A DNA stretch of 61,717 nucleotides from a virus (taxonomy: Duplodnaviria > Caudoviricetes), in IMG/VR virus record IMGVR_UViG_3300037634_001516, positions 1 through 61,717 of that record; one strand, 5' to 3'. Below, piece after piece: positions 21,858 to 37,944 of this stretch. A program made the position numbers and the translations under genes. A model generated the notes under the pieces. It was given only the letters and a program-made list of their open reading frames with translations, did not search any database and was not told the origin of the DNA. Numbering within the stretch: the first letter of the stretch is position 1; every line of letters starts with the position of its first letter.

Positions 21858-22388
21858 ATGCGAGATTATAAACAAGTGACAGTAGGGCAAGAAGCTCCTG
21901 TCTGGATGGGAACTACTACCTCTGAAGAGGAGTACGAGCAAGAATGTTGGCGTGGTGCTGCATTACCTTGCGCACAAGAAGTAATGAAGCAAGACATGTT
22001 ACGAAAGACTGATAACCCTCAATTGAGTGTGCATACCACTTTTGATTTTGAAGACCTACTCGAAACAGGTAACGACTCGTTTGATAAGCAATTCAAAACT
22101 GGCCCTAGTCTAGCGGATATTCAAGATATGAAGAAGCCAACCGATAGCGGACAAGACAGTATCAACCCGTCACACTACAATGACATTCCTAAAGAACAAC
22201 AGCACCACCGTGTTGTAACTGCTCACGGACTAGACTGGTATTGTGCTTGTGCGTTGAAGTACTTGATGCGTGCTGGTAAGAAGTCTAGCACAGGCATGAC
22301 TAAGCGTGAAAAAGAGATCGATGATCTGAAGAAAGCACGCCAGTATATCGATATGAAATTGAAAGAAATGGAGGAGGGTCGACTATGA
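21858..22388 (+). CDS. DUF3310-domain protein
   Basis: INPSHY...ALKYLMRAGKK...DDLKKARQYI. Confidence 0.8.
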   Translation: MRDYKQVTVGQEAPVWMGTTTSEEEYEQECWRGAALPCAQEVMKQDMLRKTDNPQLSVHTTFDFEDLLETGNDSFDKQFKTGPSLADIQDMKKPTDSGQDSINPSHYNDIPKEQQHHRVVTAHGLDWYCACALKYLMRAGKKSSTGMTKREKEIDDLKKARQYIDMKLKEMEEGRL

Positions 22389-23437
22389 CAACCATCATCA
22401 AGGGACAGAGTTTGAACCAGTTGTTTGCTAATGCAGCTGTAGAGCTTTCCGACAATGGAAAGCGTAACAGTTCTCGTAACGGAGAAGTTACTTATCTGAA
22501 TAACGCAGTGTTCGAATTGTCTAACCCTGCTGCACGACACCTTTACCTTGAAGGTCGTAAGAACAATATCTTCGCAGTTATTGCAGAACTGTTCTGGATT
22601 ATGTCAGGCAGTGATAGGATCAATCCTTTCTTGGAGTTCTATCTGCCTCGTGCAAAAGATTTTAGTGATGATGGTGAAACATGGAGAGGCGGCTATGGCC
22701 CCCGTATCTATGCTTACGACCAACTAGACCAAGCTATCCAAGTCTTCCACAGAGAGGGGCTGGATACCCGTCGCAGTGTTATCGACATCTACCAGTCTGA
22801 ACTGGACAGTCCTGTTCATTTTGAAAGCACTAAAGATGTACCTTGTAACAATCTGGTACATTTCTATGTAGACGATGGCAAGATGTGCATGAACGTATTT
22901 AGTCGCAGTGCAGACCTCGTATGGGGCGTTACTAACGTCAATATACCTGAGTGGACATTCCTTCAAGAATACGTTGCACAAGCGGTAGGCGTACCTGTAG
23001 GCAGTTATACCCACTGGTGTAGCAACCTGCACGTGTACGACTTTACCAGCTCGCAAGTAGAAAGTGTCATGGATACACCACACCCTAAAGCATCCTTGGA
23101 ACCAAGTGAATACAAACCTTGTGTGTTCCCTGAAGAGTCTTGTCGTGACTTCTTTATTGACCTGCTCGATTTCTATGAAGATATCATTGCGGAAAGGTCA
23201 GGAGAGAAGCTGTGCGAGATTTTTAGTGATTACGGTGTGCCTTTTGTTAACAACCAGTTGTGGGACTATGCTATGGTTTTAGCTAGATTCACCCAGAACA
23301 AAGTCGACAAGAGAGAGACTCCATTCTTAAACACTGGGCTTTCTCCAGACTTCTACGCAGCTGTCATGGGTAGCCAGTTCCGAAACTTTCCTATAGCGTC
23401 GTTTCAAAACAATGCATTAAGTATGATACAATACTAA
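22385..23437 (+). CDS. Thymidylate synthase-family protein, probable dUMP hydroxymethylase
   Basis: FSDDG...GGYGPR; TRRSVI; KDVPCN; RSADLVWG...NIPEW (Asn at the dUMP-specificity position); NLHVY; co-occurs with 5hmU kinase and AADT. Confidence 0.82.
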   Translation: MTTIIKGQSLNQLFANAAVELSDNGKRNSSRNGEVTYLNNAVFELSNPAARHLYLEGRKNNIFAVIAELFWIMSGSDRINPFLEFYLPRAKDFSDDGETWRGGYGPRIYAYDQLDQAIQVFHREGLDTRRSVIDIYQSELDSPVHFESTKDVPCNNLVHFYVDDGKMCMNVFSRSADLVWGVTNVNIPEWTFLQEYVAQAVGVPVGSYTHWCSNLHVYDFTSSQVESVMDTPHPKASLEPSEYKPCVFPEESCRDFFIDLLDFYEDIIAERSGEKLCEIFSDYGVPFVNNQLWDYAMVLARFTQNKVDKRETPFLNTGLSPDFYAAVMGSQFRNFPIASFQNNALSMIQY

Positions 23438-23597
23438 TCCTAAAGGAGGACTTATGCGCAAGATACGCAAAGGCAATACAGATTCCTACGCAGACCAGAT
23501 GTGGAGGGAGAACTTGCGGTTGCCCTTCTATGTTGTTGGTACAGCTTTCGTTGCTGTAGTCCTTCTCGGATTAGAACCTTGTTTGTAATACTATTCC

Positions 23598-23674
23598 CTC
23601 CCCATAGCTCAATTGGATAGAGCAATGCCCTTCTAAGGCATCGGTTTCAGGTTCGAGTCCTGATGAGGAGGCCA
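23598..23674 (+). tRNA. tRNA-Arg(TCT)
   Basis: Cloverleaf; ATGCC-CTTCTAA-GGCAT anticodon arm; GGTTCGAGTCC; encoded CCA. Confidence 0.93.
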
Positions 23675-23680
23675 AACACT

Positions 23681-23755
23681 GCGGGTATCGTATAAAGGCT
23701 ATTACCTTGGGTTTCCAACCCAATGATGAGAGTTCGATTCTCTCTATCCGCTCCA
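23681..23755 (+). tRNA. tRNA-Gly(TCC)
   Basis: GCGGGTA/TATCCGC acceptor stem; TTGGG-TTTCCAA-CCCAA; GTTCGATTC; CCA. Confidence 0.93.
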
Positions 23756-24030
23756 CTATAATAACACTCTGGTTGCAGGAGGCTCTTAACAAAGTCTCTT
23801 GTGACCAATTATATTTTATCTAGGTACTTTAATGAGCAATAAAGATTTACAAGGCAGAATATTAAAATTAGAAGATACGATACAACAACTGCACGACCTG
23901 AGCGAACGGCTTAGGAAAGATGCAGAAGAAGCAGACCGCAGAGTAGATGTCATGAGAGACAAACTCAAGAAAGCGGGACTATATCTTTAGAGACTTGGGT
24001 CTCCTAAGATAATAAAATAGGAGACTAATT

Positions 24031-24597
24031 ATGAAAACAGTAATGATCGATGTTGACTTGACCTTAGTGGATACTTTGAGTCCTTGGTTGCGCTGGTTTA
24101 AAGCACGAACAGGTATTGAATTAGAAGCTAACACTTATGAGTTAAGTACCCAGATGGCCAAGTATATGATCCACGAATGTCCAATGTCTTATTGGAGAGA
24201 GAAAGGAGTATACGAGGGTTTAATACCGTACCCTGCTTCAACATACACTGTACGCAAGTTGGTAGATAGTGGATTCAGAGTGGTATTTGTCACTTGGTCT
24301 CCTTATCCAGACCAAATCGCACCGAAAGAACAGTGGTTGACTAAGCACTACGGAAACGATATCCCCGTTATCCACACAGAACACAAACACTTGATTGACG
24401 CAGATATTATGATAGACGATAACCCGAAAATGTTGTCTGAGTTCTTAGCAGCCAAATCAGGTCGTGTTGCTCTTAAGTACGATACAAGACTAAACCAAAA
24501 CTGGAGTGCCCCATATGGACAGAAGTCCCTCACCATAAGAAGCTGGGATTCCGTCCAAGAGTACTTTACTAATTACCAAGGAGTGCAATTTAAATGA
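24031..24597 (+). CDS. HAD-family 5'(3')-deoxyribonucleotidase
   Basis: IDVDLTLVD; K..WL..H; MIDDNP. Confidence 0.85.
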   Translation: MKTVMIDVDLTLVDTLSPWLRWFKARTGIELEANTYELSTQMAKYMIHECPMSYWREKGVYEGLIPYPASTYTVRKLVDSGFRVVFVTWSPYPDQIAPKEQWLTKHYGNDIPVIHTEHKHLIDADIMIDDNPKMLSEFLAAKSGRVALKYDTRLNQNWSAPYGQKSLTIRSWDSVQEYFTNYQGVQFK

Positions 24598-25175
24598 GTT
24601 ACATTTCTCTATCAGGCAACATTGCTGTAGGCAAGTCTACTGTACTTGCTGGTCTCGAAGAAAAAGGATACAAAACTGTATATGAAAACCTTGGGCCAGA
24701 GTTCCTGAGTCTTCTTGCAGACTATAACGAAGATCCTATGACTGCGATAGACCTACAGAACTATATAAACGAGTACCGTTTCAACGACAGTAAGCGTTCT
24801 AGCTTAATTGAAGATGACCTGTTCATTCATGAACGGTCTATGATCGACGACATGATCTTCACCACTCACATGATGGGTCGTGGAGAGATCACAGAGTTGG
24901 CTTGGGTTAAGTTTTTAGAAGAAGCTCACCGTCGTTTGGACATCTGTCCTCCGAAAAAGGTCATATACTTGTACGCAGACCCTGAAACTACTTACAGTCG
25001 AATGGCTGCACGTGGTCGTCCAGAAGAAAGCAATCAAACCTTGATGTCTCTCGCAGAACTCGAACAGACTCACCAGCTCCTGCTGCCTATGATCTGTGAA
25101 GAAATTGGTGCAGAGTTAATTGAGGTAGACTGGACAAACTTCGGAGATATAAACGACATCATCAAAGTTCTTTAA
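24594..25175 (+). CDS. Deoxynucleoside/dNMP kinase
   Basis: SGNIAVGKST; ERSMIDD; IYL; RGRPEE. Confidence 0.88.
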   Translation: MSYISLSGNIAVGKSTVLAGLEEKGYKTVYENLGPEFLSLLADYNEDPMTAIDLQNYINEYRFNDSKRSSLIEDDLFIHERSMIDDMIFTTHMMGRGEITELAWVKFLEEAHRRLDICPPKKVIYLYADPETTYSRMAARGRPEESNQTLMSLAELEQTHQLLLPMICEEIGAELIEVDWTNFGDINDIIKVL

Positions 25176-25198
25176 CCAAACCTTAGGAGGTACGATTT

Positions 25199-26288: not shown

Positions 26289-26309
26289 ACTTAAACAATA
26301 GGAGGTTTT

Positions 26310-26684: not shown

Positions 26685-26688
26685 TACC

Positions 26689-27666
26689 ATGAATAAGAAG
26701 CAACGTAAAATGTTAGACAAAAGCATTGAGTTCGCAAAGCGTATCGGATTAGCACCAGCTAACAAGATGACACCGACTCAGTTGGCTAAAGAAGCCAAGA
26801 CTATCTCTGGTGTAAAGACTACAGTATTGACCGAAAAGGATATGGCCAAACTTGGGATGGGGCTGCTCTTAGGAGTATCTCAAGGTTCTGATGAAGAAGC
26901 TAAGTTCATCGTTTGTGAGTACAACGGCACTGGTTGCGCTAAGTCTCCACCGACAGTACTGATCGGCAAGGGATTAACTTTCGATATGGGCGGCAACTCT
27001 ATCAAGCCAGCAACCAACCTTCACCAAATGAAGTTTGATATGTTAGGCGGTGGAGCAGTATTGGCCACAGTACAAGCAGCAGCAGAGATGAAGCTGCCTC
27101 TGAACATTGTTGGTATTGTTCCTGCATCAGAGAACCTGATTAACGGTAAGGCTACAAAACCTGGAGATGTTCACACGAGTATGTCAGGTCTTACTGTAGA
27201 CGTTCGAAATACTGATGCAGAGGGTCGTTTGATTCTAGCTGATGCTTTGACTTACGCTCAAGATATCTACCCTGACGCGAAGTCTATTACGACTGTCGCT
27301 ACTCTTACTGGTGCCCAGCTTTATGCTACAGGCACAACACACTCTGCTCTGCTCGGCAACGACCAAGACTTGATCGACGAGATCAAAGCTGCAGGGGATG
27401 AGTCAGGAGATCTTGCATGGCAGTTGCCATTCGTACAAGAACACTCTGACGAGATGAAAGGCCAAGAAGGTGTTAGTGATCTGAAGAATGTAGAGACTAA
27501 CCGTGGTCCAGGAACTATCACAGCGTTTGCTTTCTTAGAAGCATTTGTTGATGAGGATGTCCCATTCGCCCACTTAGACGTTGCTTCAACAGCTTCCAAA
27601 GGTGATGAAGTGACAGGTCGTCCAATATCACTACTGGTTCAGTTCCTACTTAATCGTACTTTATAG
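26689..27666 (+). CDS. M17 leucyl aminopeptidase (catalytic domain only)
   Basis: IGKGLTFDMGG; MKFDMLGG; NTDAEGRLILAD; ATLTGA; HLDVA. Confidence 0.93.
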   Translation: MNKKQRKMLDKSIEFAKRIGLAPANKMTPTQLAKEAKTISGVKTTVLTEKDMAKLGMGLLLGVSQGSDEEAKFIVCEYNGTGCAKSPPTVLIGKGLTFDMGGNSIKPATNLHQMKFDMLGGGAVLATVQAAAEMKLPLNIVGIVPASENLINGKATKPGDVHTSMSGLTVDVRNTDAEGRLILADALTYAQDIYPDAKSITTVATLTGAQLYATGTTHSALLGNDQDLIDEIKAAGDESGDLAWQLPFVQEHSDEMKGQEGVSDLKNVETNRGPGTITAFAFLEAFVDEDVPFAHLDVASTASKGDEVTGRPISLLVQFLLNRTL

Positions 27667-27676
27667 GAGACACATT

Positions 27677-27989: not shown

Positions 27990-28013
27990 TTAAAACACTG
28001 TATTATGAAATAA
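27990..28013 (+). promoter_or_regulatory. Putative phage RNAP promoter, copy 7
   Basis: TTAAAACACTGTATTATGAAATAA. Confidence 0.75.
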
Positions 28014-28411: not shown

Positions 28412-29005
28412 ATGATTATTAAGTTTAAGATGTGGTTTATGCGTACCCAGTTATACAACTGGTTATTGAAGCACGTAATACCTTATATCAGGTTCAGCAC
28501 TTACTACACTTCTATGCGAGGATGGAAGTATCATCACGTCTACGACAACATACGAGCAGGCGACATTATCCTAACCACGGACAAGAAGAAACTAACCACG
28601 TTTCTGATCGGTGGAGAGTTCAGTCACGCTGCTGTTTGCGTCAGTAAGGATAAAGTCTGGGAAGTGTCAGAAATGACCCACTCAGACTATACGAAGAGTA
28701 CTGTAGCAGACTTGTGCTTTGAAGCGACAAGAGTTGTAGTTCTACGCTGTGAGGATTTCTCTCAAGGGTACACTATGAGTTTCGTCGACAAGGTGAAGAG
28801 CTTTGAAGGAGTGCCTTACGATAACTTATTCGAACTTGGGGTAGAAGCCTTGTCATGTTCAGAGTTGGTTTATGAAGCAGACTACAAACGACTTTTAGAC
28901 GTATCTCTTGAAGACGTCATAGGAATAGGACAATTATACATCAGCCCAACCGGATTAGCTAACGCTAAAAACTGCCGAGTTGTTGTAGATACAGATCTAT
29001 TATAA
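28412..29005 (+). CDS. Permuted papain-like NlpC/P60 amidase (YiiX/YebB-like)
   Basis: GDIILT; FSHAAV; GVPYD; SCSELVY (His before Cys). Confidence 0.8.
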   Translation: MIIKFKMWFMRTQLYNWLLKHVIPYIRFSTYYTSMRGWKYHHVYDNIRAGDIILTTDKKKLTTFLIGGEFSHAAVCVSKDKVWEVSEMTHSDYTKSTVADLCFEATRVVVLRCEDFSQGYTMSFVDKVKSFEGVPYDNLFELGVEALSCSELVYEADYKRLLDVSLEDVIGIGQLYISPTGLANAKNCRVVVDTDLL

Positions 29006-29778: not shown

Positions 29779-30141
29779 ATGTGCAAAGAATTAAGTAGGA
29801 CGGAACTTCGCAGATTGAAACTCAACTGTCTGAAGGCATTGCGAGAAGACAAGTGTGAGGACTGTGGATATTCTGACAGATTCGACATACTGGAGTTCCA
29901 CCACATAGTACCAAGACACCTATCGGGCAGACCCAGCTGGACTGTCGTTCGGGATTGGTCTTGGAAACAACTAAGAGAAGAGTATGACCAACAGTGTGTT
30001 CTGCTCTGTCCCAACTGTCACAAAGTTCGCCATATGGATATGGACGAAGATAGTCGAGATCAGGATGCAGACGATTGGATGGCATACAACTACCAGCACA
30101 TGACTGCTGATGAGATGTTAGAGAAACTGCAAGGAGGATAA
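29779..30141 (+). CDS. HNH endonuclease
   Basis: CEDCG...LEFHH...CVLLCPNCH...H. Confidence 0.85.
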   Translation: MCKELSRTELRRLKLNCLKALREDKCEDCGYSDRFDILEFHHIVPRHLSGRPSWTVVRDWSWKQLREEYDQQCVLLCPNCHKVRHMDMDEDSRDQDADDWMAYNYQHMTADEMLEKLQGG

Positions 30142-30507: not shown

Positions 30508-31134
30508 ATGCGTAGAGCTAATCAGGAAGAAATAGAGCAACTCTTAGAGACTCTCCCACCTGAGGAGAAGAACACTAAGTTTGCTAAAGGTGCACACAAC
30601 CTGTGGGTACGTTTCCACAATTATGGTCGACACGACCCTTGGGTGTTGGAAGACAACGGACAGATCGTTGCAGTGTGTCACATTACAGTACTGAAGAAGC
30701 AAGATTATGCAAACCTGTATGAGATCTACACAATCCCGAACAGTGAAGGCAAAGGTTACGCTAGTAAGCTGTATTGGGAGATCATGGAACATTTGGCCCA
30801 TACCTACCCAGACATCCGATTAAAGATGTCTTGTACTCCTACGAGTATCGGTTGGCATTACAGGAATGGCATCATAGGCTACGGAGTAGATCCTTCTGGT
30901 TCTATTCGAGTAGACGTTCCTATTGCTCCTACAAAGGAAGAACAGTTGGCAGTCAGGGAATCGTGGAGGTCTAACCTAGCGTCTGTACTGCCTCCTCTAA
31001 AGAGCCAAGATAAGCTCTTAAAAGAGAACCCTACCTTCGGTGTAAAGAAGACGGAACAAGTCATTCAAAGCATCCAGACGATGGGTCAATATTATCTCAG
31101 AGAGGAGATACAGCACCGAGAGGGTGCAAAATAA
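30508..31134 (+). CDS. GNAT-family acetyltransferase
   Basis: NLYEIYT.P..EGKGYAS (acetyl-CoA loop); SIGWHYRNG. Confidence 0.78.
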   Translation: MRRANQEEIEQLLETLPPEEKNTKFAKGAHNLWVRFHNYGRHDPWVLEDNGQIVAVCHITVLKKQDYANLYEIYTIPNSEGKGYASKLYWEIMEHLAHTYPDIRLKMSCTPTSIGWHYRNGIIGYGVDPSGSIRVDVPIAPTKEEQLAVRESWRSNLASVLPPLKSQDKLLKENPTFGVKKTEQVIQSIQTMGQYYLREEIQHREGAK

Positions 31135-31165: not shown

Positions 31166-31951
31166 ATGTCAAATCTAAAAGAATGGGCGATAGCAGGCAC
31201 AGTTGCGCTGTTTATTGGTTTAGGAGGTGGAGTTAACTACCTTCTAGGCAACGCTCAAGAAATAAAAGAAGAAGCAGACTCCGAGATTGGCAATCTCACA
31301 CTAACACTTCTAAAACCTAACCTATATTCTCTTACAGGAGGAGTAGGTGTAGGGGATTGTGAGAAGATTGTACCACAACTCCCTACCAAAGAAGCATTCA
31401 CTGTTATCCTAGAAAGTCCTGGAGGCTCCTTAGCTGACGGGATCTGCTTATCAGCGCACCTCAAACAGCGCAATGTTATAACAGTTATCCGAGACACTCC
31501 TGTTATGAACGAAAACGGAGAGATCGTATACAATCCTGGGCACAATACTGATATGTCCAACAAACTGGCAGAAGAAGGAAGAGACCGTGTAGTCATATGC
31601 GCGTCTGCCTGTTCTCTGTTATTCTTGGGAGGAGACGAGAGGTACTTAATGGGAGATGTCTTCCTTGGTATCCATAGTCCTCGTTCTTCCAACCCTACAG
31701 GAGATTCTGCAGCAATGGAAGCAAACGCCTACAAAACTGCGTCACAACTTCTGAAATTCTTAAGAACAGGACTTCTAGTAGAGGATGCCGAGCTTCGTCG
31801 TGTCTTTATTACTGTCCCAGCTAACTCTATGTACTATCTGAATCCAAAACACTTCAGACAAGCACCTTACTTAGTAGACTTAGCTACTCACTACAATGAC
31901 TTCTTTGGACTTACAGCATCAAATCCAAGAGCTTCATTAGGAGGAAACTAA
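31166..31951 (+). CDS. Membrane-anchored ClpP/crotonase-like (COG3904-type) protein
   Basis: N-terminal TM; LESPGG; CASACSLLFLGG..R; GIHS. Confidence 0.78.
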   Translation: MSNLKEWAIAGTVALFIGLGGGVNYLLGNAQEIKEEADSEIGNLTLTLLKPNLYSLTGGVGVGDCEKIVPQLPTKEAFTVILESPGGSLADGICLSAHLKQRNVITVIRDTPVMNENGEIVYNPGHNTDMSNKLAEEGRDRVVICASACSLLFLGGDERYLMGDVFLGIHSPRSSNPTGDSAAMEANAYKTASQLLKFLRTGLLVEDAELRRVFITVPANSMYYLNPKHFRQAPYLVDLATHYNDFFGLTASNPRASLGGN

Positions 31952-31952
31952 T

Positions 31953-32993
31953 ATGATAAAGTCATTCTTTTTAAGTAAGCAATACGCAGCGTACGCTTGG
32001 CTCATGGGCATGGTGATATGCTCTATCTCTTGGTACTCAGTAGAGTTATCGGTTACACTGAACCAGTGGAATCGTGAGATCTATGATACCTTGCAACAAC
32101 TTGATGAAGCACGCTTCTGGGAGCTGTTGCTTGGTTGGGACTGGGGAGTCTTGCAGTCTTTTATAACTCTTGAAAAAGACTTAATCACAGACAAGCCTAT
32201 TGTTCCATCATTGGTGCAATACATTGTATTCTTTATCCCTATCGCAGTATACTTCACTTGGCAGACTCAACGATACTTGTTTAAGTGGAGACAATCCAAC
32301 ACCGAACATTATCTTCGTCGTTGGGAGAACTGTACAGTAGATATAGAGGGCGCTTCTCAGCGTATACAAGAGGACTTAGCTAAGTTCGGTAAGACTCTTG
32401 AGGGTTTGTTTATTAACGCTCTTAAGTCTGTATTGACGCTTATAGCATTTATCCCTATCCTTTGGACTCTTTCAGAAGGACTGCCGATTTATGATGGTAA
32501 GTTCATTCCAGGATTCCTTGTATGGATTGCCTTGGCTATGTCTGTTGGTGGAACACTGTTGTCTGTCCTCGTTGCTTGGAAGCTCCCTAGTCTGGAGTTC
32601 CGCAACCAAGTGGTTGAAGCTCGGTTCCGTAAGCAGTTAGTTCTTGGCGAGGATAGTATGAGGCATCGTCTCGTCGCGGATTTATTCCCGATGTTCAGCA
32701 GTGTTCGTCGTAACTACTATCGCTTGTTCAACTGGTACATGGGTTTGTCGGTATGGCAGACAGCATTTGGTATCTTGTTGGGCAACGTAGCTCTTATCGC
32801 TCTAGCTCCTGCATTCTTTGCACAGTTGATAACTCTAGGCGTATTCTTCCAAGTGTTGAATGCCTTTAGTCGTGTAGAGAGTAGCATGACATTCTTCGTA
32901 GACTCTTGGTCAATTATCGTAGAATTTATGTCGGTAATTAAGCGTCTGCGCCAATTCAATAAGGCACTGGACGAAGCAGAGGAGAAGAAATAA
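31953..32993 (+). CDS. sbmA: SbmA/BacA-family peptide transporter
   Basis: WR...Y...W; IEGASQRIQED; LIAFIPILW; LEFRNQVVEARFRKQLVLGED; VRRNYYRLF. Confidence 0.9.
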   Translation: MIKSFFLSKQYAAYAWLMGMVICSISWYSVELSVTLNQWNREIYDTLQQLDEARFWELLLGWDWGVLQSFITLEKDLITDKPIVPSLVQYIVFFIPIAVYFTWQTQRYLFKWRQSNTEHYLRRWENCTVDIEGASQRIQEDLAKFGKTLEGLFINALKSVLTLIAFIPILWTLSEGLPIYDGKFIPGFLVWIALAMSVGGTLLSVLVAWKLPSLEFRNQVVEARFRKQLVLGEDSMRHRLVADLFPMFSSVRRNYYRLFNWYMGLSVWQTAFGILLGNVALIALAPAFFAQLITLGVFFQVLNAFSRVESSMTFFVDSWSIIVEFMSVIKRLRQFNKALDEAEEKK

Positions 32994-33472
32994 TGAATGC
33001 ATTTAAAAGATGGGCAGCTCTAGCGTCCCTGATGTTATTAGCAAGTTGGTACTTGGTAGATGCAGGCGTTGTCGAAGAGATCATGTACACAGACGTGAGT
33101 AAGCTTTCCGTTGTGATAGCTGCTCTGCTCACAATAGGTACTGTGCTAATGGGCTACGCATCCTATCGAGTAGGCGTTAACGCTGGTCAGTCTCACAACA
33201 GAGACATCAGACTTTACATGGGCTGGTTTATGGCTGAAGCCATGATGGTCTTAGGTCTGGCTGGTACTGTTGTAGGTTTCATCGTACTGTTCCAAGGGAA
33301 CTTTGCTGATGTGACGTTTGACGATCCAGAGACAGTCCAAGAGGTAATCATAGCCATTGCTTCAGGCATGGGGGTTGCGCTTTATACCACAATCGTAGGC
33401 ATCTTCTCGAGCCTTCTAATGAAGATCATGTTGGTCAATGTAGAAGTTTCGGAAGAAGAACAGGACAACTAA
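32993..33472 (+). CDS. MotA/TolQ/ExbB proton-channel family protein
   Basis: LGLAGTVVGFI...GMGVALYTTIVG. Confidence 0.85.
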   Translation: MNAFKRWAALASLMLLASWYLVDAGVVEEIMYTDVSKLSVVIAALLTIGTVLMGYASYRVGVNAGQSHNRDIRLYMGWFMAEAMMVLGLAGTVVGFIVLFQGNFADVTFDDPETVQEVIIAIASGMGVALYTTIVGIFSSLLMKIMLVNVEVSEEEQDN

Positions 33473-33489
33473 CAAGGAGGACGCATGTC

Positions 33490-34125
33490 ATGAATAAGCA
33501 CAAATTCAAATCGAATACCGCTTTCACCGATCTGCTGTTTCTAATGTTGTCGGGAGTAACCGTACTTTGGGTACTCTCGTTTATTCTGATCAACCCAGTG
33601 GCCAAGACACAGGACGTCGAGTCACATGCCAAGTTCCTTCTAACGATGGACTGGGCAGATGAGTCTAAGGATGACATAGATATGTGGTTACGGAACCCAG
33701 ACGGGTCTATTGTCTACTTCGGTAGCAAGGACAACGGTGGTTCTACTTTGGAGAGAGATGACTTGGGCTTGTCTAGTGATTGTGTATCAAACATGAGCAC
33801 TGGTGAACCTATTTGTGTCTACCTGAACCGTGAGGTTATAGCTGTAAGCAATCCTCAAGCTGGCGAATACCAACTACAGTTCAGAGTGTACAACAAGTAC
33901 TCTTCAGTTGCAGATGGGAATCCTGTGAGGATGGAGATCATACAAGTTACCCCTTATAAGATACTATTTTCAGAGAAGTTCAACTATGCACACAACAAAC
34001 AAAGGATCTCAGTCATTAGGTTTACAGTAGATGCTGACGGCAAGATTGCCAGCTTTAGTGAGACCAAGTCTGATTTCGATATGGCGAAGCCTACGGGCAG
34101 AGCTGACACTGAAACAGGAGGTTAG
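33490..34125 (+). CDS. ExbD/MotB-like TM anchor with a periplasmic domain
   Basis: AFTDLLF TM helix with conserved Asp; DIDMW...PDG...LERDDLG; follows the MotA-like gene. Confidence 0.7.
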   Translation: MNKHKFKSNTAFTDLLFLMLSGVTVLWVLSFILINPVAKTQDVESHAKFLLTMDWADESKDDIDMWLRNPDGSIVYFGSKDNGGSTLERDDLGLSSDCVSNMSTGEPICVYLNREVIAVSNPQAGEYQLQFRVYNKYSSVADGNPVRMEIIQVTPYKILFSEKFNYAHNKQRISVIRFTVDADGKIASFSETKSDFDMAKPTGRADTETGG

Positions 34126-34126
34126 G

Positions 34127-34591
34127 ATGACAGACCATATAGCTTACATTGTAGTGTGGACGTTTGCCTCTCTAGGCTTCCTGTTCACCATACAGACAAT
34201 CTACCCACCTAAGAAGATAGCGGTATCGTTTCTGTTTATACTGGTGACTATCTGTGCGCCTGTTATGCTCTACACTCCTGTTGTAGATTCTCTGGGGTAC
34301 TCTGTAGAGTCGGAAGACGCTTCAACCGCCAAGATGATCGACTACACTGTCGACTCTGAGCAGAAGTGGATACACATATGGGTTTACAATGTTGAAGTTG
34401 ACGAGCCAAGATCATATAAGATTCCGTATACAAAAGAAGACGAAGAGAAGCTATCAGCTGGCAAGAAGAAAGGCGAAGAAGGAGTTCCGCAGCAGGTTAC
34501 AATACCTGGATCGCAGAAAGCCAGTCGTCAAGACCAAGCTGGTGGCAAATTAGAAATTGAAGATTTACCAGATGGAGGTAGAAGAAAGTGA
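34127..34591 (+). CDS. Membrane protein
   Basis: Start at 34127 after GGAGG; two TM segments; EPRSYKIPY. Confidence 0.7.
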   Translation: MTDHIAYIVVWTFASLGFLFTIQTIYPPKKIAVSFLFILVTICAPVMLYTPVVDSLGYSVESEDASTAKMIDYTVDSEQKWIHIWVYNVEVDEPRSYKIPYTKEDEEKLSAGKKKGEEGVPQQVTIPGSQKASRQDQAGGKLEIEDLPDGGRRK

Positions 34592-34791
34592 GCAAGAAGA
34601 AAGTAGAAAACAAAACTAACGTAGTTACTCTAACTGTGGAGCCTAAGAGCAAGAAGCCTGCAGTTAAAAAGGCTAAGAAGATGACTGCGAAACAGCAGAC
34701 ACTGCATGCCTACCAGACAGGCAATATGTCTATCATCGCATTACACCAATTCGGGCCAACTGGCTGGGAAATGTTTAAGGGTGATAAGTAA
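34588..34791 (+). CDS. Small basic protein
   Basis: GTG start with GGAGG RBS. Confidence 0.55.
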   Translation: MSKKKVENKTNVVTLTVEPKSKKPAVKKAKKMTAKQQTLHAYQTGNMSIIALHQFGPTGWEMFKGDK

Positions 34792-35024
34792 TGGTTCCAG
34801 TTATCACAGTAACTATCTACGGGACGGCTTGGTGTGGCCCCTGTAAACAATCCAAGATGTTGTGTGAGACTAAGGACACTCCTTACGTCTTCATCAACAT
34901 CGAGGAAGACACTGACGCAAGACAAATGTTTACCAACCGAGGGTTCCGCACAGTCCCTCAGATCTTTATTGGAGATGAGCACATCGGAGGTTATGACGAC
35001 CTTGTTGCGTTTCACAGTGCATAA
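34791..35024 (+). CDS. Glutaredoxin
   Basis: WCGPC; TVPQIFI; IGGYDDL. Confidence 0.92.
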   Translation: MVPVITVTIYGTAWCGPCKQSKMLCETKDTPYVFINIEEDTDARQMFTNRGFRTVPQIFIGDEHIGGYDDLVAFHSA

Positions 35025-35054
35025 ACACACCGTTATATATATAAGGAGGCAACT

Positions 35055-35894
35055 ATGCTGAGCAAAGAATATGTTGAACAACTGAAGGAAGATGGCTTTG
35101 TTACTCTACAGGACTACTTAGGTGGTTACGAATTGGGTAAGATCCGAGCTGAGATCTCCTGCATGAATGAAATGCACTACAATGAAGAGAACCTGAAAAG
35201 TGGTGTGGCGTATCCTAGTGACTCTACGGAGACACGAACCAGTAATGCCTACCTTATAGGTAACGGGGGGTGTTATTTCCCACATATCAATCTACAGATG
35301 CACGAATACTATGGTATCGATTCTATCCTCGATGACTGGAACTCCTTGATTTCCACATTGGAAGAACACGTACCTACTGTTGGTACAAACACTAACTATT
35401 ACGATGTGTCTGATTCTTCTACGATGATAAACTTTCAAGAATACAGGGAAGCCAGCAAGCCAGTGCCACCGCATATGGACGGCCACTACTTAGAGTATAC
35501 TTGCAACGATGACGGCACTATGTCTGTTACTGAAGCTCTGGTGCCTAATTTTGTTGGTGTGTTGGTCTTGCATAACGAGAACGACAACGATGTGGGTACT
35601 GTACTTGTTGAAGTGGACACAGGTAAGCGTATTCCTGTTCAAGCTGCAGCAGGCGACTTCGTCATATTTGACAACATCCGGTTCACTCATGAAGTACCTT
35701 CGCTGGAGAAGCCACGAGCTATGCTTGGTCTTCGGAACTTTACATACAAGCCTTACAGGTTTACTCAAAAGCGAGTAGCGCCTCTGAAGTCGTATGTCGG
35801 CAGCTTCTTTGAAGGGTATATCGAACGAATCGGAGACAAGGATGCTGTAGAAGCTTGGGATGAAAGCTCAGGTTATGAAGAAGCACCTTTTTGA
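35055..35894 (+). CDS. 2OG-Fe(II) oxygenase (PhyH-like)
   Basis: EDGFV; HMD facial triad; AGDFVIFDN...H...R. Confidence 0.78.
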   Translation: MLSKEYVEQLKEDGFVTLQDYLGGYELGKIRAEISCMNEMHYNEENLKSGVAYPSDSTETRTSNAYLIGNGGCYFPHINLQMHEYYGIDSILDDWNSLISTLEEHVPTVGTNTNYYDVSDSSTMINFQEYREASKPVPPHMDGHYLEYTCNDDGTMSVTEALVPNFVGVLVLHNENDNDVGTVLVEVDTGKRIPVQAAAGDFVIFDNIRFTHEVPSLEKPRAMLGLRNFTYKPYRFTQKRVAPLKSYVGSFFEGYIERIGDKDAVEAWDESSGYEEAPF

Positions 35895-35910
35895 TATAGG
35901 AGATCCCCCA

Positions 35911-36102
35911 ATGTTTGATAATAGAATCAATAGATGTACCTGTGGCTCTAACGACATTGTCGTAAAGTGTACCAGCAGCAGTCATTACGCAGAAGACTAC
36001 GTAGAGTGTCAGACCTGCCTAAAGCAAGGAGCTGGAGAGTTCGGTATCCACGATGCGATACAGAGCTGGAACAGAATAAACCAAGAGGGAGATACATTGT
36101 GA
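35911..36102 (+). CDS. Lar-like zinc-finger protein
   Basis: CTCGS...VECQTC...AIQSWN. Confidence 0.6.
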   Translation: MFDNRINRCTCGSNDIVVKCTSSSHYAEDYVECQTCLKQGAGEFGIHDAIQSWNRINQEGDTL

Positions 36103-36317
36103 GCACAAAAAGGATTAAGTGGTCAGGTACCGCCATCCTCATACTAACAGCTGCGTTGACCGCATTCAACGTGTATCCTCTCAACCTGATTGTAGGATCC
36201 TTCGCGACTATCATGTTAGGTTACGTTGCTTTTGTTGAAAGAGACAAACAGTACATGCTGATCAATCTTATGTTCATCACTTTAAATTTTGTTGGAATAT
36301 GGAGTTATTATGGATAG
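36099..36317 (+). CDS. Small membrane protein
   Basis: GTG start; KWSGT...NVYPLN... three hydrophobic segments. Confidence 0.6.
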   Translation: MSTKRIKWSGTAILILTAALTAFNVYPLNLIVGSFATIMLGYVAFVERDKQYMLINLMFITLNFVGIWSYYG

Positions 36318-37284
36318 GAAAGATCTATTTAAGCAATTCTACGTTAACAGTGCCAAGGTGCAGGACATCGATCCTAACATCTGGATGCTCAACTACGTAA
36401 TAGACCGGATGGAGATGAACGACCAACAAGTGTTGTGGCTTTGTTTCCTGAATGCTATCACGTACCATACACCAACAGCTTTAGTCATCTGGAACGAGTT
36501 TCCTGACCTAGAGTGTGCAGGTATTGAACGGTTGACTGAGTGGTGGGATAAGGAGACGCAGCTTCGATTGCCTTTCCAAACAGACAAGCTCAAGCAACGC
36601 AGACATCTGCCAGAGACAGTAGCCAGTTATAAGGAAATGGTCTGTGGAGATCAGAAAGCGTACTTTGACGGTTTGCTGGACAGTACTCCTGAACAGAACT
36701 TTGAGACATTGTGGACAGAGGCGTACAAACCTATCCGACACTTTGGTCGGTTCTCTGTATGGAACTGGGCACAAACACTCAAGCAAGTAGCAGGGTACGA
36801 CATAGAGCCTACCAACCTATTCCTTGGAGAGCGTAACGCAGAGAGCATCACACACGGTGCTTGTTGGGTTCTCGGTAAAGAAGAGGAATGGGCTTATAAG
36901 AGGAGATGGAAAGATGAACACGGTAAAAAGCACAAAGAAGTACACGTATTCTCCGAAAGTGAGAAAGCAACTCTGGAGGACGGTATCGGCCAAATCATGG
37001 ACGAACTCTGGCAGGAGTATCCGGAAATACTCGTAGATGCATTTAATGTCGAAACGATGTTGTGTGCGTTCAAGAAGTTGTTTAGACAACGAGATAGTCG
37101 ATATGTTGGCTATTATCTCGACAGGCAGGCCATAGACATCAATAAGACTTCATCCAAAGATTGGTATGGGGTTGAGTGGAAGCTGCTCTGGGACGCTCGT
37201 AAGGAGCTGCTACAAGAGGACAAACTTAACGATGCAATACAGAAAGAACGATTTAACCACACAGCAGAGGACAAAATCCTTTAA
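36310..37284 (+). CDS. Amino acid:DNA transferase (aGPT-Pplase2 family)
   Basis: WLCFL...Y; FQTD; HFGRFSVW (HhH-like); ETMLCAFKK; YVGYYLDR; adjacent to a P-loop kinase. Confidence 0.8.
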   Translation: MDRKDLFKQFYVNSAKVQDIDPNIWMLNYVIDRMEMNDQQVLWLCFLNAITYHTPTALVIWNEFPDLECAGIERLTEWWDKETQLRLPFQTDKLKQRRHLPETVASYKEMVCGDQKAYFDGLLDSTPEQNFETLWTEAYKPIRHFGRFSVWNWAQTLKQVAGYDIEPTNLFLGERNAESITHGACWVLGKEEEWAYKRRWKDEHGKKHKEVHVFSESEKATLEDGIGQIMDELWQEYPEILVDAFNVETMLCAFKKLFRQRDSRYVGYYLDRQAIDINKTSSKDWYGVEWKLLWDARKELLQEDKLNDAIQKERFNHTAEDKIL

Positions 37285-37305
37285 ACAGACCAAGGAGTAC
37301 TTACT

Positions 37306-37944
37306 ATGATTAAAAACTGGATAGCTTTATTAGGAGCAAACGCAACAGGCAAGTCAACCAGAGTAACAGAATACACTAAATCTCTCGGTACAGCAGACCG
37401 AGTTCTTGACTACACCTTTGAAAAGAATGGTGAGATGAAGACTATCAAGGGAGCAGGTCACATCTGGGGGGATATGATGGTAGTCGGTCGCCCAACAAGA
37501 GATGGCTTGAAGTGGGTCGGAGGAGACCACACTATGGGAGTCTTAGGTTCTATTGCCTGTGTTGAACAGTTCTTCATTGATATGGACGAACTGGGCATCA
37601 AGACAATGGTGTTTGAAGCTTATTTCGGCAACAACTCATCTATGTATCGTCCAGAGAGATTGCACCGATTCTTTGAGAATGTGCACCATTACTGGTTTCT
37701 CTATGATGAGTTGCAACAGTACATCGACCGTACCGAAAATCGATCTGGTCAGACTTGGGAAGAGAAAGGCAAGGATGCAGAGGCATCAGCTGGTTGGAAG
37801 AGTAACGTCTCTTACTTCAAGTCCTTAGCCATTAACTTCGAGCAAGTGGAAGGTACCAACAGCACTGTCCAACGGGTGGCTATTGACGCACCTAAAGATT
37901 GGCTAGTGGGCGAAATGAAGGATTTATCGAAAGGAGTATTATAA
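37306..37944 (+). CDS. P-loop kinase, probable 5-hydroxymethyluracil DNA kinase
   Basis: GANATGKST; VGR...GGD; VFEA; R...RS; adjacent to AADT. Confidence 0.72.
   Translation: MIKNWIALLGANATGKSTRVTEYTKSLGTADRVLDYTFEKNGEMKTIKGAGHIWGDMMVVGRPTRDGLKWVGGDHTMGVLGSIACVEQFFIDMDELGIKTMVFEAYFGNNSSMYRPERLHRFFENVHHYWFLYDELQQYIDRTENRSGQTWEEKGKDAEASAGWKSNVSYFKSLAINFEQVEGTNSTVQRVAIDAPKDWLVGEMKDLSKGVL

Follow-up and report, generated by a model that had tools for sequence, protein, structure and literature searches.

A stand-alone glutaminase and a GNAT acyltransferase linked to amino acid:DNA transferase in a phage thymidine-hypermodification pathway

We analyzed the complete 61.7-kb genome of an uncultured marine siphophage with a T7-like RNA polymerase (the window, meaning the whole stretch of 61,717 nucleotides), and its gene content supports a full thymidine-hypermodification pathway starting from 5-hydroxymethyl-dU (5-hmdU). 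The evidence also supports an Ntn amidotransferase (the glutaminase) and a GNAT acyltransferase as members of the pathway: relatives of the phage adjoin or fuse them with the amino acid:DNA transferase (AADT). The persistence of the glutaminase–AADT pairing suggests that ammonia from glutamine, and not a whole amino acid, becomes attached to the base. We give about even odds (roughly 0.5) to the reading that glutaminase and AADT form a glutamine-dependent DNA amidotransferase making 5-aminomethyl-dU, which is then N-acylated by the GNAT.

Genes of the pathway and their arrangement

The first-pass annotation had proposed a 5-hmdU-type pathway, and the joint presence of a TS-like hydroxymethylase, a 5-hmdU DNA kinase and an AADT bears this out. 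The TS homolog, nucleotidase, Ntn protein, GNAT, AADT and kinase that it named are all present on the plus strand, correctly typed and correctly placed (Table 1). The MazG gene is real but lies outside the range 22385–37944 to which it had been assigned.

Table 1. Features of the window discussed in the text
Feature	Position	Strand	Evidence or context
MazG-family nucleotide pyrophosphohydrolase	18602..18952	+	Pfam MazG, E 5.7e-10
Ribonucleotide reductase-like protein, weak class II signatures	19405..21312	+	Pfam Ribonuc_red_lgC, 9.5e-6; RNR-II_ins_dom, 7.7e-5
17-nt motif copy	21730..21746	+	Heads block with TS, NT5C and dNK-family kinase
TS homolog	22385..23437	+	Pfam Thymidylat_synt, E 2.3e-18
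NT5C-family 5'-deoxynucleotidase	24031..24597	+	Pfam NT5C, E 4.6e-12
dNK-family P-loop kinase	24594..25175	+	Pfam dNK, E 1.2e-19
17-nt motif, exact copy	27992..28008	+	Heads 10.3-kb block with GATase (glutaminase), GNAT, oxygenase, AADT and kinase
Stand-alone class II (Ntn) glutaminase domain, 213 aa	29112..29753	+	Pfam GATase_6, E 2.9e-8
HNH endonuclease, homing-endonuclease type	29779..30141	+	PHROG HNH endonuclease, E 6.6e-16
GNAT acyltransferase, type A, ~200 aa	30508..31134	+	Pfam Acetyltransf_1, 2.1e-8; Acetyltransf_7, 3.8e-6
Membrane cassette: membrane-anchored w31166, SbmA/BacA-like transporter, MotA/ExbB-like protein, two more membrane proteins	31166..34591	+	Pfam SbmA_BacA, E 9.4e-75; MotA_ExbB, E 1.5e-5
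2OG-Fe(II) oxygenase-fold protein, prolyl-hydroxylase-like	35055..35894	+	Conserved ligands; AlphaFold and Foldseek
AADT (aGPT-Pplase2 family)	36310..37284	+	Pfam PF18724, E 2.3e-13, 50.9 bits (cut-off 26.2)
5-hmdU DNA kinase, HMUD2 type	37306..37944	+	Pfam PF18747, 29.7 bits (cut-off 25)
17-nt motif copy, promoter-like	38341..38357	+	Ends GATase-to-kinase block; next copy after 27992

The TS homolog scores 64.9 bits, far below the ThyA equivalog cut-off of 327 (NCBIfam), and in the alignment its Cys154 and Asn186 correspond to the catalytic Cys (C146) and the uracil-type Asn (N177) of the E. coli enzyme. A C-terminal extension of ~110 aa is common to this protein, SPO1-like gp29, the ViI-like homolog, M6 gp58 and PaMx11 gp51, and its best matches among cultured phages are phages of the 5-hmdU type. 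By these sequence features, the TS-fold enzyme is most likely a dUMP hydroxymethylase making 5-hmdUMP. For its neighbors, MazG would clear the dTTP/dUTP pool, NT5C would remove dTMP and the dNK-family kinase would phosphorylate the 5-hmdU nucleotide; NT5C homologs are also found directly upstream of GATase–AADT in five related loci (L004, L005, L011, L048 and L066).

The AADT reading frame opens with TTG at 36289, but homologs start at the position of the ATG at 36310. The metagenomes contain 325 AADT homologs. Its E255, T256 and C259 align with Glu243, Thr244 and Cys247 of PaMx11 gp46, the residue roles being those given in the available text of PMC11472151. The glycine-contacting Trp146 and Lys150 of gp46 are replaced by Phe155 and Asn159; as the serine-type ViI-like enzyme likewise has Asn at the second of these positions, the change does not single out ammonia. 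The kinase has the Walker A motif GANATGKST; HMUD2-family kinases were matched in 26 related loci, and in the closest relatives of the window (e.g., L002, L003, L021 and L024) the gene is directly downstream of AADT. The glutaminase starts at the ATG at 29112, giving the N terminus MCGVVG, and lacks an acceptor domain of its own. Its residues C2, R30, G31, H77, R79, N101, G102, N124 and D125 are invariant in 11 homologs, and the protein looks catalytically competent; its best NCBIfam matches are purF, asnB and glmS.

A 17-nt repeated motif (family D2) occurs in eight copies, 8/8 on the plus strand, in comparison with 0.01 expected by chance, and is a candidate phage-RNAP promoter. The copies at 27992 and 38341 are consecutive, and the glutaminase, GNAT, oxygenase, AADT and kinase genes all lie between them. 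The link of the tailoring genes to AADT had been doubted as other genes intervene, and the genes are indeed separated in the window, the glutaminase being 6.5 kb from AADT. In relatives, however, the objection largely falls away for the glutaminase and the GNAT. The HNH gene separating GATase from GNAT is missing from that gap in L035, L037, L041 and L042, and is not a pathway gene. The membrane cassette, the proteins of which have visible hydrophobic stretches at their N termini, is upstream of AADT in the window, L024, L027, L031 and L032 but downstream in L035, L037 and L038, and probably stands outside the base pathway.

Forty of the 60 plus-strand ORFs of at least 100 aa were scanned against Pfam and 10 more against PHROGs only; the 10 outside both scans are nine ORFs of at most 148 aa and a 1332-aa late gene at the window end. 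Among the 50 ORFs scanned, none matched PLP, radical SAM or flavin families, in agreement with the earlier statement that the window has no such tailoring enzyme.

Linkage of glutaminase and GNAT to AADT in related loci

We compared 67 unique related loci and took as informative the 45 whose sequence extends 700 nt or more beyond AADT on the upstream side. In these, a glutaminase homolog abuts or overlaps AADT in 23 cases, is separated from it only by a GNAT gene in 4 and lies 2.1–8.4 kb upstream in 4. It was not seen in 14 of the 45: six of these are close relatives of the window on contigs with just 0.9–6.2 kb upstream of AADT, and eight, in which it is missing, belong to distant AADT subclades. 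Three further short loci have an adjacent glutaminase fragment, and the adjacency spans AADT identities down to ~30%. In two natural fusions, P0141 (588 aa) and P0142 (647 aa), a single chain carries an N-terminal glutaminase followed by a C-terminal AADT, with both the MCGI start and the ETxxC motif kept. The classical Ntn amidotransferases PurF, GlmS and AsnB have the same domain order, with the glutaminase N-terminal to the acceptor domain.

Strong GNAT homologs were found in 13 related loci. In six of them (L035, L037, L041, L042, L012 and L071) the gene is contiguous with GATase and AADT, and both orders, GAT–GNAT–AADT and GAT–AADT–GNAT, are seen among related loci. One natural AADT–GNAT fusion (P0041, n = 1) was detected, and in L004 a GNAT–amidoligase–kinase fusion comes straight after AADT. 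With adjacency in relatives and the fusions, the doubted link to AADT is largely resolved for both GATase and GNAT.

The glutaminase and a radical SAM gene (c17; Pfam 1.4e-20) are mutually exclusive: in five loci of distant subclades that lack a glutaminase (L083–L086 and L088), c17 immediately precedes AADT, in L014 and L068 it follows AADT at a distance of a few to ~8 kb, and it occurs in 0 of the 34 glutaminase-bearing loci.

In comparisons between pairs of 30 loci, glutaminase identity rises and falls with AADT identity (r 0.87; 0/2000 permutations as high), as expected for any two co-inherited genes.

A proposed ammonia route and its alternatives

Before replication, the TS-fold dUMP hydroxymethylase would make 5-hmdUMP, and NT5C, MazG and the dNK-family kinase would, by their family assignments, skew the nucleotide pool such that 5-hmdU is incorporated instead of T. 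After replication, the HMUD2 kinase would put a phosphate on the hydroxymethyl group, which the conserved Cys of AADT would displace, following the scheme for PaMx11 gp46. We propose that the stand-alone glutaminase is the ammonia-donating subunit for AADT: it would hydrolyze glutamine and pass the ammonia on, giving 5-aminomethyl-dU directly and making a glycine adduct and a flavin lyase unneeded. As the glutaminase would supply the nucleophile itself, probably no amino acid is installed, and the amidated amino-acid-thymine suggested by the first-pass annotation becomes a less likely final base. The GNAT would then N-acylate the free amine, most simply by acetylation, to 5-acetylaminomethyl-dU or a related acyl form. 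The gene identities, catalytic residues, linkage and fusions are observations, from which we infer that the nucleophile is ammonia, what donates the acyl group and which base results. According to the available text of Lee 2021 (PMC8989533), which quotes 257 u for 5-NmdU and 299 u for its acetyl form, 5-NmdU is a substrate of the PaMx11 acetyltransferase but the glycine adduct is not; a free aminomethyl group would therefore suit a GNAT. The window GNAT has no significant similarity to this acetyltransferase, gp48 (BLASTP E 0.29), and the acetylation step thus rests on analogy.

Adjacency and fusions are also compatible with consecutive enzymes of one pathway, and a kinase–PLP–AADT triple fusion is described in the available text of Lee 2021 (PMC8989533). 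The Ntn protein might then act after AADT as an EgtC-like amidohydrolase on the DNA-bound residue: AADT would install glutamine or a gamma-glutamyl compound through nitrogen, the Ntn protein would trim it to either an aminomethyl group or a glutamyl adduct and the GNAT would cap the remaining amine. Sequential enzymes of this kind fit the linkage equally well, stand-alone Ntn domains of the glutaminase fold can be hydrolases and not amidotransferase subunits, and EgtC, an Ntn amidohydrolase cleaving a gamma-glutamyl amide, has structures at ranks 5–10 of the fold matches (probability 1.00). In both sequence and fold, however, the glutaminase is closer to PurF and GlmS: the nearest folds to its AlphaFold model (pLDDT 90.2) are the glutaminase domains of these two (TMq 0.64–0.70; identity 20–22% for PurF and 18% for GlmS), with EgtC next (TMq 0.54–0.59; identity 13–15%), and Pfam gives GATase_6 alone at E up to 0.01. 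In PurF and GlmS, the residues equivalent to the conserved Arg79 and Asp125 bind glutamine by its free alpha-carboxylate and alpha-amino groups, which argues against an N-alpha-linked substrate, and on chemical grounds an amide nitrogen would be a poor nucleophile for the AADT step. We consider an amidohydrolase acting after AADT unlikely.

Compatible with any of these readings, the 2OG-Fe(II) oxygenase might additionally tailor the base to an oxidized or hydroxylated form. The protein has zero matches in Pfam, PHROG and NCBIfam, and 0 of its 16 database homologs have a Pfam domain, but its AlphaFold model (pLDDT 82.9) matches prolyl-4-hydroxylases and PHD2 in Foldseek (probability 1.00, E 1e-10), and the earlier oxygenase call therefore holds at the fold level. 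The iron and 2OG ligands H140, D142, H212 and R221 are invariant in the family, the gene falls between the same two promoter-like motifs as AADT, from which it is separated by a single small gene, and in the hypermodification loci L004, L011 and L082 its homologs adjoin the TS homolog. Against tailoring, homologs are found in just 4 of the 67 related loci, the fourth as a contig-end fragment (L033), and none outside the window adjoins AADT; by fold it matches oxygenases that act on small molecules and prolyl hydroxylases that act on proteins, but not TET/JBP. The suggested link of the oxygenase to AADT is thus weak and its membership in the pathway uncertain, and we regard oxidative tailoring as improbable.

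In another alternative, the nucleophile is an ordinary amino acid or polyamine, as in ViI, M6, phiW-14 and SH-Ab 15599, and the glutaminase and GNAT are auxiliary metabolic genes unrelated to DNA. In its favor, known AADTs accept glycine, serine, putrescine or diaminopropane, other genes lie between the three in the window, and Ntn GATase genes of cultured marine podophages sit in unrelated amidoligase and ATP-grasp modules. Against it stand the adjacency or overlap in 23 of the 45 informative loci, two glutaminase–AADT fusions and one AADT–GNAT fusion, and the podophage GATases are only 24–29% identical and have an extra C-terminal half. This alternative appears very improbable.

Comparison with known systems

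The glutaminase shares with PurF, GlmS and AsnB the N-terminal Cys nucleophile, the Arg, Asn-Gly and Asp residues of the glutamine site and the fold. It differs in its proposed acceptor, a modified base of duplex DNA bound by the AADT domain, a kind of acceptor not found among the solved PurF, GlmS and EgtC structures matched or in the literature searched, and in that glutaminase and AADT are separate polypeptides in most related loci. Gat-QueC in the phage 9g-type 7-deazaguanine pathways provides, in the available accounts, a precedent for a glutamine amidotransferase domain serving DNA base modification. The target of Gat-QueC is a free 7-deazaguanine precursor that has yet to enter DNA, and both its pathway and its partner differ from those of the window glutaminase.

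Among cultured phages, the closest AADT is the serine:DNA transferase of the ViI/Det7 type (26–27% identity over 94% of the length), and the ViI-type TS homolog is 33–34% identical. Those phages have a PLP decarboxylase, not found in the window, and no glutaminase adjoins AADT in ViI-like phages; ViI is a 158-kb myophage, whereas the window is a 62-kb siphophage. In PaMx11, gp46–gp49 are AADT, flavin lyase, acetyltransferase and 5-HMUDK and lead to 5-AcNmdU, according to the available text of the two reports (Lee 2021, PMC8989533; Wen 2024, PMC11472151). The window also has a kinase, an AADT with the catalytic Glu-Thr-x-x-Cys motif conserved, a GNAT-type acetyltransferase and, nearby, a TS-like hydroxymethylase, and its predicted pathway may end in the same base. 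It differs in having an Ntn glutaminase instead of the flavin-dependent lyase, an AADT that shares only 17% identity with gp46 and belongs to another branch that separated long ago, a kinase of the HMUD2 type and a GNAT not detectably related to gp48, and the proposed route bypasses the N-alpha-glycinyl intermediate.

The available text of Lee 2021 (PMC8989533) lists 5-HMUDK/aGPT-Pplase2 contigs from metagenomes on which "glutaminotransferase" and amidoligase domains also occur, and that of a 2026 study (PMC13229309) contains GATase/kinase/AADT sets beside ParB-dependent T-dioxygenases. Both have the same gene combination as the window, although the 2026 sets have a TET/JBP dioxygenase where the window has a TS-like hydroxymethylase, and the contigs analyzed here may be among those drawn there. 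GATase–AADT co-occurrence is therefore already in print (2021, 2026), listed without a role in the available text, and the window contributes a complete genome to this previously noted, biochemically uncharacterized class. Beyond what that text holds, our analysis adds counts of how often the genes adjoin, the fusions, a check of the catalytic residues, the radical SAM exclusion and a specific mechanism. The first-pass annotation had suggested that the final base may be new; an acetylated product would be 5-AcNmdU, already described from PaMx11 enzymes, and in that case the novelty may lie in the route and not in the base.

Genome layout and the thymidine hypermodification core

The record is a complete genome according to CheckV (100%), with a GC content of approximately 42–46% and all function-assigned ORFs on the + strand. 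PHROG matches included a T7-like single-subunit RNA polymerase, a primase/helicase, a family A DNA polymerase and an exonuclease as well as a large terminase, a portal, a major head protein and a major tail protein, and on their basis we consider the window a phage of siphovirus type whose replication and transcription module is like that of T7. A Megablast search with the entire region gave no match among 50,697 cultured phage records, so no near relative is known there. A second RNA polymerase-like protein, of 1679 aa, is encoded among the structural genes, flanked by the portal-side genes and the scaffold gene. In this protein, a Mu F-like head-protein domain (E 3.5e-7) is joined to a T7-like RNA polymerase domain at the C-terminus (Pfam RNA_pol, E 3.1e-52). 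It groups with the early 876-aa RNA polymerase on clustering and has homologs in two related metagenome or viral loci (L002, L003); it looks like a second RNA polymerase of the siphophage, possibly carried in the virion.

The 17-nt motif AAAACACTGTATTATGA occurs in eight + strand copies with at most one mismatch, against 0.01 expected by chance, and we infer it to be a candidate promoter of the phage's own RNA polymerase. The glutaminase (the stand-alone Ntn protein), the GNAT, the intervening genes, the 2OG-Fe(II) oxygenase and the amino acid:DNA transferase (AADT) all lie between the consecutive copies at 27992 and 38341. No copy was found downstream of the latter in the window, and the late genes may therefore rely on a different signal, perhaps that of the second RNA polymerase.

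Elsewhere in the genome, we observed a 57-nt repeat whose two copies are 86% identical and both contain the sequence CUGAUGA...GAAAC...GUC of the hammerhead core. In a 2.3-kb search, the one at 3110-3171 reached 28.1 bits against Rfam Hammerhead_II (E 0.0054), short of the gathering score, which is 37. The early region also encodes an S-adenosylmethionine lyase family protein, likely a second anti-restriction function alongside the base modification. An AAA+ ATPase, matching ATPase and protease families in PHROG, is followed by a ClpP-family protease, and the two may form a phage Clp-like protease pair. A unit of ~123 nt in three tandem copies, 74–85% identical over 159 nt, sits within a 1332-aa late gene running off the window end.

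Coordinates of the features discussed, with the matches on which their assignments are based
Feature	Coordinates	Match or remark
57-nt repeat	1096-1152; 3110-3171	hammerhead core
Motif AAAACACTGTATTATGA	2008, 8030, 8229, 10403, 14992, 21730, 27992, 38341	all +
S-adenosylmethionine lyase family protein	2599-3111	Pfam E 1.5e-11
T7-like RNA polymerase	4307-6937	PHROG
AAA+ ATPase, ClpP-family protease	10453-12408	protease: Pfam E 1.1e-23
MazG	18602-18952	
TS homolog	22385-23437	Pfam E 2.3e-18
tRNA genes Arg(tct), Gly(tcc)	23598-23755	
Terminator-like hairpin	23770-23807	
M17 leucyl-aminopeptidase-family protein	26689-27666	E 1.8e-102, full length
C92 permuted papain-like amidase	28412-29005	E 9.4e-12
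Glutaminase	29112-29753	GATase_6, E 2.9e-8
GNAT	30508-31134	Acetyltransf_1, E 2.1e-8; 34.9 bits, cut-off 20.7
Membrane cassette	31166-34591	five genes
Short unannotated ORFs	34588-34791; 34791-35024	
2OG-Fe(II) oxygenase	35055-35894	fold level
AADT	36310-37284	PF18724, 50.9 bits, cut-off 26.2; +
HMUD2 kinase	37306-37944	PF18747, 29.7 bits, cut-off 25; +
128-aa protein	37948-38334	
Second RNA polymerase-like protein	46789-51828	1679 aa
~123-nt tandem units	59301-59705	three copies

All genes named in the first-pass annotation were present in the places it had given, among them the P-loop kinase adjoining the AADT and a nucleotidase, identified as NT5C and accompanied by a dNK-family kinase; the MazG gene is real but lies outside the range to which the annotation had assigned the pathway. 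The TS homolog reached 64.9 bits with the ThyA equivalog model, whose cut-off is 327, and is without the ThyA C-terminus. In an alignment that includes E. coli ThyA and homologs from phages, the protein retains the catalytic Cys154, and its Asn186 aligns with E. coli Asn177, a position occupied by Asp in a T4-like 238-aa homolog, which supports the earlier description of the protein as dUMP-specific. A C-terminal extension of ~110 residues is common to the TS homolog, a ViI-like protein, M6 gp58, PaMx11 gp51 and a SPO1-like protein annotated as deoxyuridylate hydroxymethyltransferase. The best matches among cultured phages were in 158-kb Vibrio phages (39% identity) and in ViI-like (33%), SPO1-like (31%) and M6-like (29%) phages, with T4-like proteins at 26%, and the nearest relatives belong to phages of the 5-hmdU type. 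We infer the protein to be a TS-fold dUMP hydroxymethylase of the SPO1 gp29 type, in which hydration would take the place of hydride transfer, with 5-hmdUMP rather than dTMP as the predicted product. Two tRNA genes and then a strong terminator-like hairpin are located immediately 3' of this gene.

A profile search for the AADT gave 51.8 bits in the window genome and matched none of 14 control genomes. The likeliest start of the gene is ATG 36310, the point at which homologous proteins begin, and E255, T256 and C259 are shared without exception by the 16 sequences aligned, among them PaMx11 gp46 (taken from its genome record), M6 gp51 and Det7. In PaMx11 gp46, the corresponding catalytic Cys247 is preceded by the metal-binding Glu243-Thr244 (PMC11472151). 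The glycine-contacting Trp146 and Lys150 of glycine-type enzymes are not kept, being replaced by Phe155 and Asn159 in an alignment of 17% identity and moderate reliability only, and by this contact-residue criterion the window AADT is not of the glycine type. AADTs as a family are defined by the transfer of free amino acids or amines onto 5-phosphomethyl-dU residues of DNA, an activity that the window protein may share. Neither the AADT sequence nor its profile found anything useful among PDB sequences, and the AADT matches in cultured phages were all below 60% identity (~26% for those listed). The HMUD2 kinase, a 5-hmdU DNA kinase with the P-loop/Walker A motif GANATGKST, begins 22 nt after the AADT end. 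Directly 3' of the kinase is a gene for a 128-aa protein with no family match but with homologs in 12 related loci, mostly in the same position and twice adjoining an HNH gene; by eye, it bears some resemblance to small DNA-binding proteins of the homing-endonuclease type.

The glutaminase and its linkage to the AADT

The glutaminase gene starts at ATG 29112 and encodes a protein of 213 residues beginning MCGVVG, a bare domain without an acceptor domain. The Met-Cys start, Arg30-Gly31, His77, Arg79, Asn101-Gly102 and Asn124-Asp125 are invariant in 11 homologs, and by PurF/GlmS numbering we take these residues to be the nucleophile, the oxyanion hole and the binders of the glutamine alpha-carboxylate and alpha-amino groups. 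In NCBIfam, purF, asnB and glmS ranked first, all far under their cut-offs. The structure model (pLDDT 90.2) has the Ntn four-layer fold, with PurF, GlmS and EgtC matched at probability 1.00 and the closest similarity to PurF (TMq up to 0.70, 20–22% identity) and the GlmS glutaminase domain. Complex-prediction runs on the AADT and glutaminase scored 0.05, 0.76 and 0.02 and weigh neither for nor against a contact. Genes for M17 and C92 family proteins are placed between the nucleotide genes and the glutaminase, and in L003 a C92 homolog likewise precedes the glutaminase, separated from it by a single small ORF.

We found 325 metagenome homologs of the AADT, with a best identity of 87% and several from Tara ocean samples. 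Related loci were not found with the single AADT protein but were recovered by alignment-based scans: an alignment of 31 AADT homologs gave 14 viral and 73 metagenome loci, or, after removal of 20 duplicates, 67 unique loci apart from the window. We searched the ORFs of these loci with HMMs built from our own alignments. The first-pass annotation had singled out the glutaminase, the GNAT and the oxygenase as candidate tailoring enzymes; the first two proved to be tied to the AADT by adjacency and fusions, whereas the oxygenase did not, the three being found in 34, 13 (GNATs of type A) and 4 of the 67 loci, respectively.

Among the 45 loci with at least 700 nt upstream of the AADT, the glutaminase abuts or overlaps the AADT in 23 (gap ≤50 nt), is separated from it by only a GNAT (plus a 66-aa ORF in two) in four (L035, L037, L041, L042), lies 2.1–8.4 kb upstream in four (L003, L024, L033, L052) and was unseen in 14. 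Six of the latter are close relatives of the window whose contigs reach only 0.9–6.2 kb upstream of the AADT, and they say little because in the window lineage the glutaminase sits 3.0–8.4 kb away; the remaining eight fall in distant AADT subclades. A glutaminase fragment adjoining the AADT was also seen in three more loci, whose flanks are short. A profile search for longer glutaminase proteins gave five matches, two of which, P0141 (588 aa) and P0142 (647 aa), carry an N-terminal glutaminase and an AADT in the same chain, with the MCGI start, the motifs of the glutamine site and the ETxxC motif of the AADT all intact. Pairwise identities of glutaminases and AADTs co-vary across 30 loci (r 0.87; none of 2000 permutations as high), which shows joint inheritance, as expected of any two co-inherited genes.

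The GNATs are of two types. Strong homologs of the window's ~200-aa protein (type A) are those counted above, and a ~150-aa form (type B) occurs in 10 more loci, always with an Amidoligase_2 domain and fused to it in L004 and L084-L088. The gene order is glutaminase-GNAT-AADT in the four loci with an interposed GNAT and glutaminase-AADT-GNAT in another four (L012, L071, L005, L047); the database protein P0041 is an AADT-GNAT fusion, and a 700-aa protein just after the AADT in L004 is a fusion of GNAT, amidoligase and HMUD2 kinase. Amidoligase_2 and a small GNAT surround the glutaminase-AADT core in L004, L005, L011, L043, L047, L052, L058 and L081, in some cases fused to each other or to the kinase, and L007 has a TET-associated-glycosyltransferase (TAGT)-like protein by the core. 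Such differing decoration genes suggest several different final bases across the loci.

A radical SAM gene (Pfam 1.4e-20) lies directly upstream of the AADT in the glutaminase-less loci L083-L086 and L088, and the same family occurs a few to ~8 kb downstream of the AADT in L014 and L068; it was found in none of the 34 glutaminase-bearing loci. An amidoligase-GNAT fusion is present in the radical-SAM loci (L084-L088). In a maximum-likelihood tree of 56 AADTs, obtained by a quick search only and with several long branches and unsure deep joins, the glutaminase-linked genes occupy three subclades, the radical-SAM-linked AADTs nest within one clade also holding three glutaminase-linked loci, and the glycine-type AADTs of M6 and PaMx11 form a long separate branch.

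In the window itself, an HNH endonuclease and a 76-aa ORF separate the glutaminase from the GNAT and are absent where these two genes touch. Between the GNAT and the AADT are two short ORFs, the oxygenase, a DUF6552 protein and a five-gene cassette. The cassette encodes a 261-aa membrane-anchored protein, a transporter resembling SbmA/BacA (E 9.4e-75), a MotA/ExbB-like protein and two others that have hydrophobic segments at the N-terminus. It is kept as a unit in 7–10 related loci, always beside hypermodification genes, and is located upstream of the AADT in the window, L024, L027, L031 and L032 and downstream of it in L035, L037 and L038. Because it moves as a unit and switches sides, we regard the separation in the window as a lineage-specific rearrangement and not as evidence against linkage. 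The cassette as a part of the pathway was rejected as unsupported: its products are membrane proteins, and its side relative to the AADT varies.

Candidate chemistry and its alternatives

Thymidine hypermodifications shield phage DNA from restriction and are a source of enzymes for derivatising DNA in vitro. To our knowledge, every characterised route installs a whole amino acid or polyamine and then carves it with PLP, radical SAM or flavin enzymes. Consistent with the first-pass annotation, none of these families was seen in scans covering 40 of the 60 large plus-strand ORFs of the window with Pfam and 10 with PHROGs only, the other 10 being nine ORFs of at most 148 aa and the 1332-aa late gene. 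In known AADTs, the Cys activates C6, the phosphate is expelled and an amine or hydroxyl nucleophile is added (PMC11472151; Lee 2021, PMC8989533).

We propose that the glutaminase would hydrolyse glutamine and the AADT would serve as its acceptor domain, the ammonia being added at the exocyclic methylene to give 5-aminomethyl-dU. This is the simplest reading of the AADT's role because an intact, acceptor-less glutaminase adjoins, overlaps or is fused N-terminally to it. The GNAT beside the pair would then N-acylate the new amine, which fits the PaMx11 acetyltransferase accepting 5-aminomethyl-dU and not the glycine adduct (Lee 2021, PMC8989533); in other loci, the amidoligase would amide-link a carboxylate to the same amine. 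From the gene arrangements and conserved residues, we put the probability of 5-aminomethyl-dU formation from glutamine ammonia followed by N-acylation at approximately 0.5. A tentative extension, held somewhat short of even odds, is that the glutaminase and AADT form a new kind of amidotransferase that takes a base within duplex DNA as its acceptor, with glutamine-derived ammonia passing through a channel and displacing the phosphate on 5-phosphomethyl-dU in one step. 5-Aminomethyl-dU would then be a hub decorated differently by different phages: by a type-A GNAT in the window lineage, by Amidoligase_2 and a small GNAT in L004, L005, L047, L052 and L058, and by a TAGT-like glycosyltransferase in L007.

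As the main alternative, the Ntn protein could be a hydrolase similar to EgtC whose substrate is a gamma-glutamyl or glutaminyl residue bound to DNA. EgtC ranks next after PurF and GlmS in the fold comparison (TMq 0.54–0.59, 13–15% identity), and we consider such an activity unlikely; it would often yield the same aminomethyl product.

Participation of the oxygenase in the base pathway would not exclude either activity. The protein had no match in Pfam, PHROGs or NCBIfam, and the earlier 2OG-Fe(II) call is right at the fold level because the model and the invariant residues agree: the AlphaFold model (pLDDT 82.9, pTM 0.85) has the double-stranded beta-helix fold, bearing an HxD...H iron triad and a basic residue for 2OG binding, and H140, D142, H212 and R221 are invariant in 16 database and two locus homologs. 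The homologs lie beside the TS homolog in three loci. Nevertheless, they are limited to the four loci, and the model resembles prolyl-4-hydroxylases and PHD2 (Foldseek probability 1.00, E 1e-10) rather than TET/JBP, the listed fold matches being prolyl hydroxylases, SnoN/SnoK and uncharacterised oxygenases; a role in the pathway thus seems improbable. That the glutaminase and GNAT have nothing to do with DNA is very unlikely in view of their adjacency to and fusions with the AADT.

Known systems and significance

In PaMx11, 5-aminomethyl-dU requires both a glycine transferase and then a flavin lyase (Lee 2021, PMC8989533), whereas the glutaminase-AADT pair would reach the same base in one step; the window GNAT has no significant similarity to the PaMx11 acetyltransferase gp48 (BLASTP E 0.29, 22% identity over 129 residues). 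In a 2026 PNAS paper, GATases are listed along with P-loop kinases and AADTs among the T-hypermodification genes next to ParB-dependent T-dioxygenases (PMC13229309), and a 2026 NAR paper still names radical SAM, PLP, flavin lyase and acetyltransferase enzymes as the repertoire for tailoring. The gene pairing has thus been recorded in two papers, with no function assigned in their main texts (PMC8989533, PMC13229309), and related contigs may already be drawn in Figure 2 or the supplements of Lee 2021. Our literature searches, based on main texts, found no paper giving the glutaminase a role, although an earlier suggestion is possible, and the diaminopropane-thymine paper and Lee 2018 contain no mention of amidotransferases. 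The Carin-5 and UDG-fused polymerase systems were set aside as comparators, belonging to a different, glycosylated pathway.

The glutaminase-AADT pair was not found in any cultured phage of the collection searched, and a cultured phage as the source of the chemistry was therefore dropped. With tblastn, the glutaminase matched 15 cultured phage records at 24–29% identity; inspection of two of them, from Vibrio phage 1.293.O and from Pseudoalteromonas phage RIO-1, placed the GATase in an unrelated amidoligase/ATP-grasp/gamma-glutamyl cyclotransferase module, and no AADT is listed in the regions shown. As a complete genome, and with the pair unseen in cultured phages, the window is a good template for gene synthesis and reconstitution.

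The region encodes a form of the known kinase/AADT thymidine hypermodification system, from a glutaminase-bearing class that has been noticed before and is uncharacterised, with an AADT clade widespread in marine metagenomes. The genes reported in the first-pass annotation are confirmed, and its interpretation is supported in part. The question of most interest is whether the glutaminase and AADT act as a glutamine-dependent amidotransferase on DNA. If so, direct amination would be a shorter route to 5-aminomethyl-dU and the first case of an Ntn amidotransferase with a DNA acceptor, and it would explain the gene association previously noted without a function. If 5-aminomethyl-dU is indeed a hub, marine phages would contain a family of undescribed N-acyl and N-aminoacyl aminomethyl-uracil bases.
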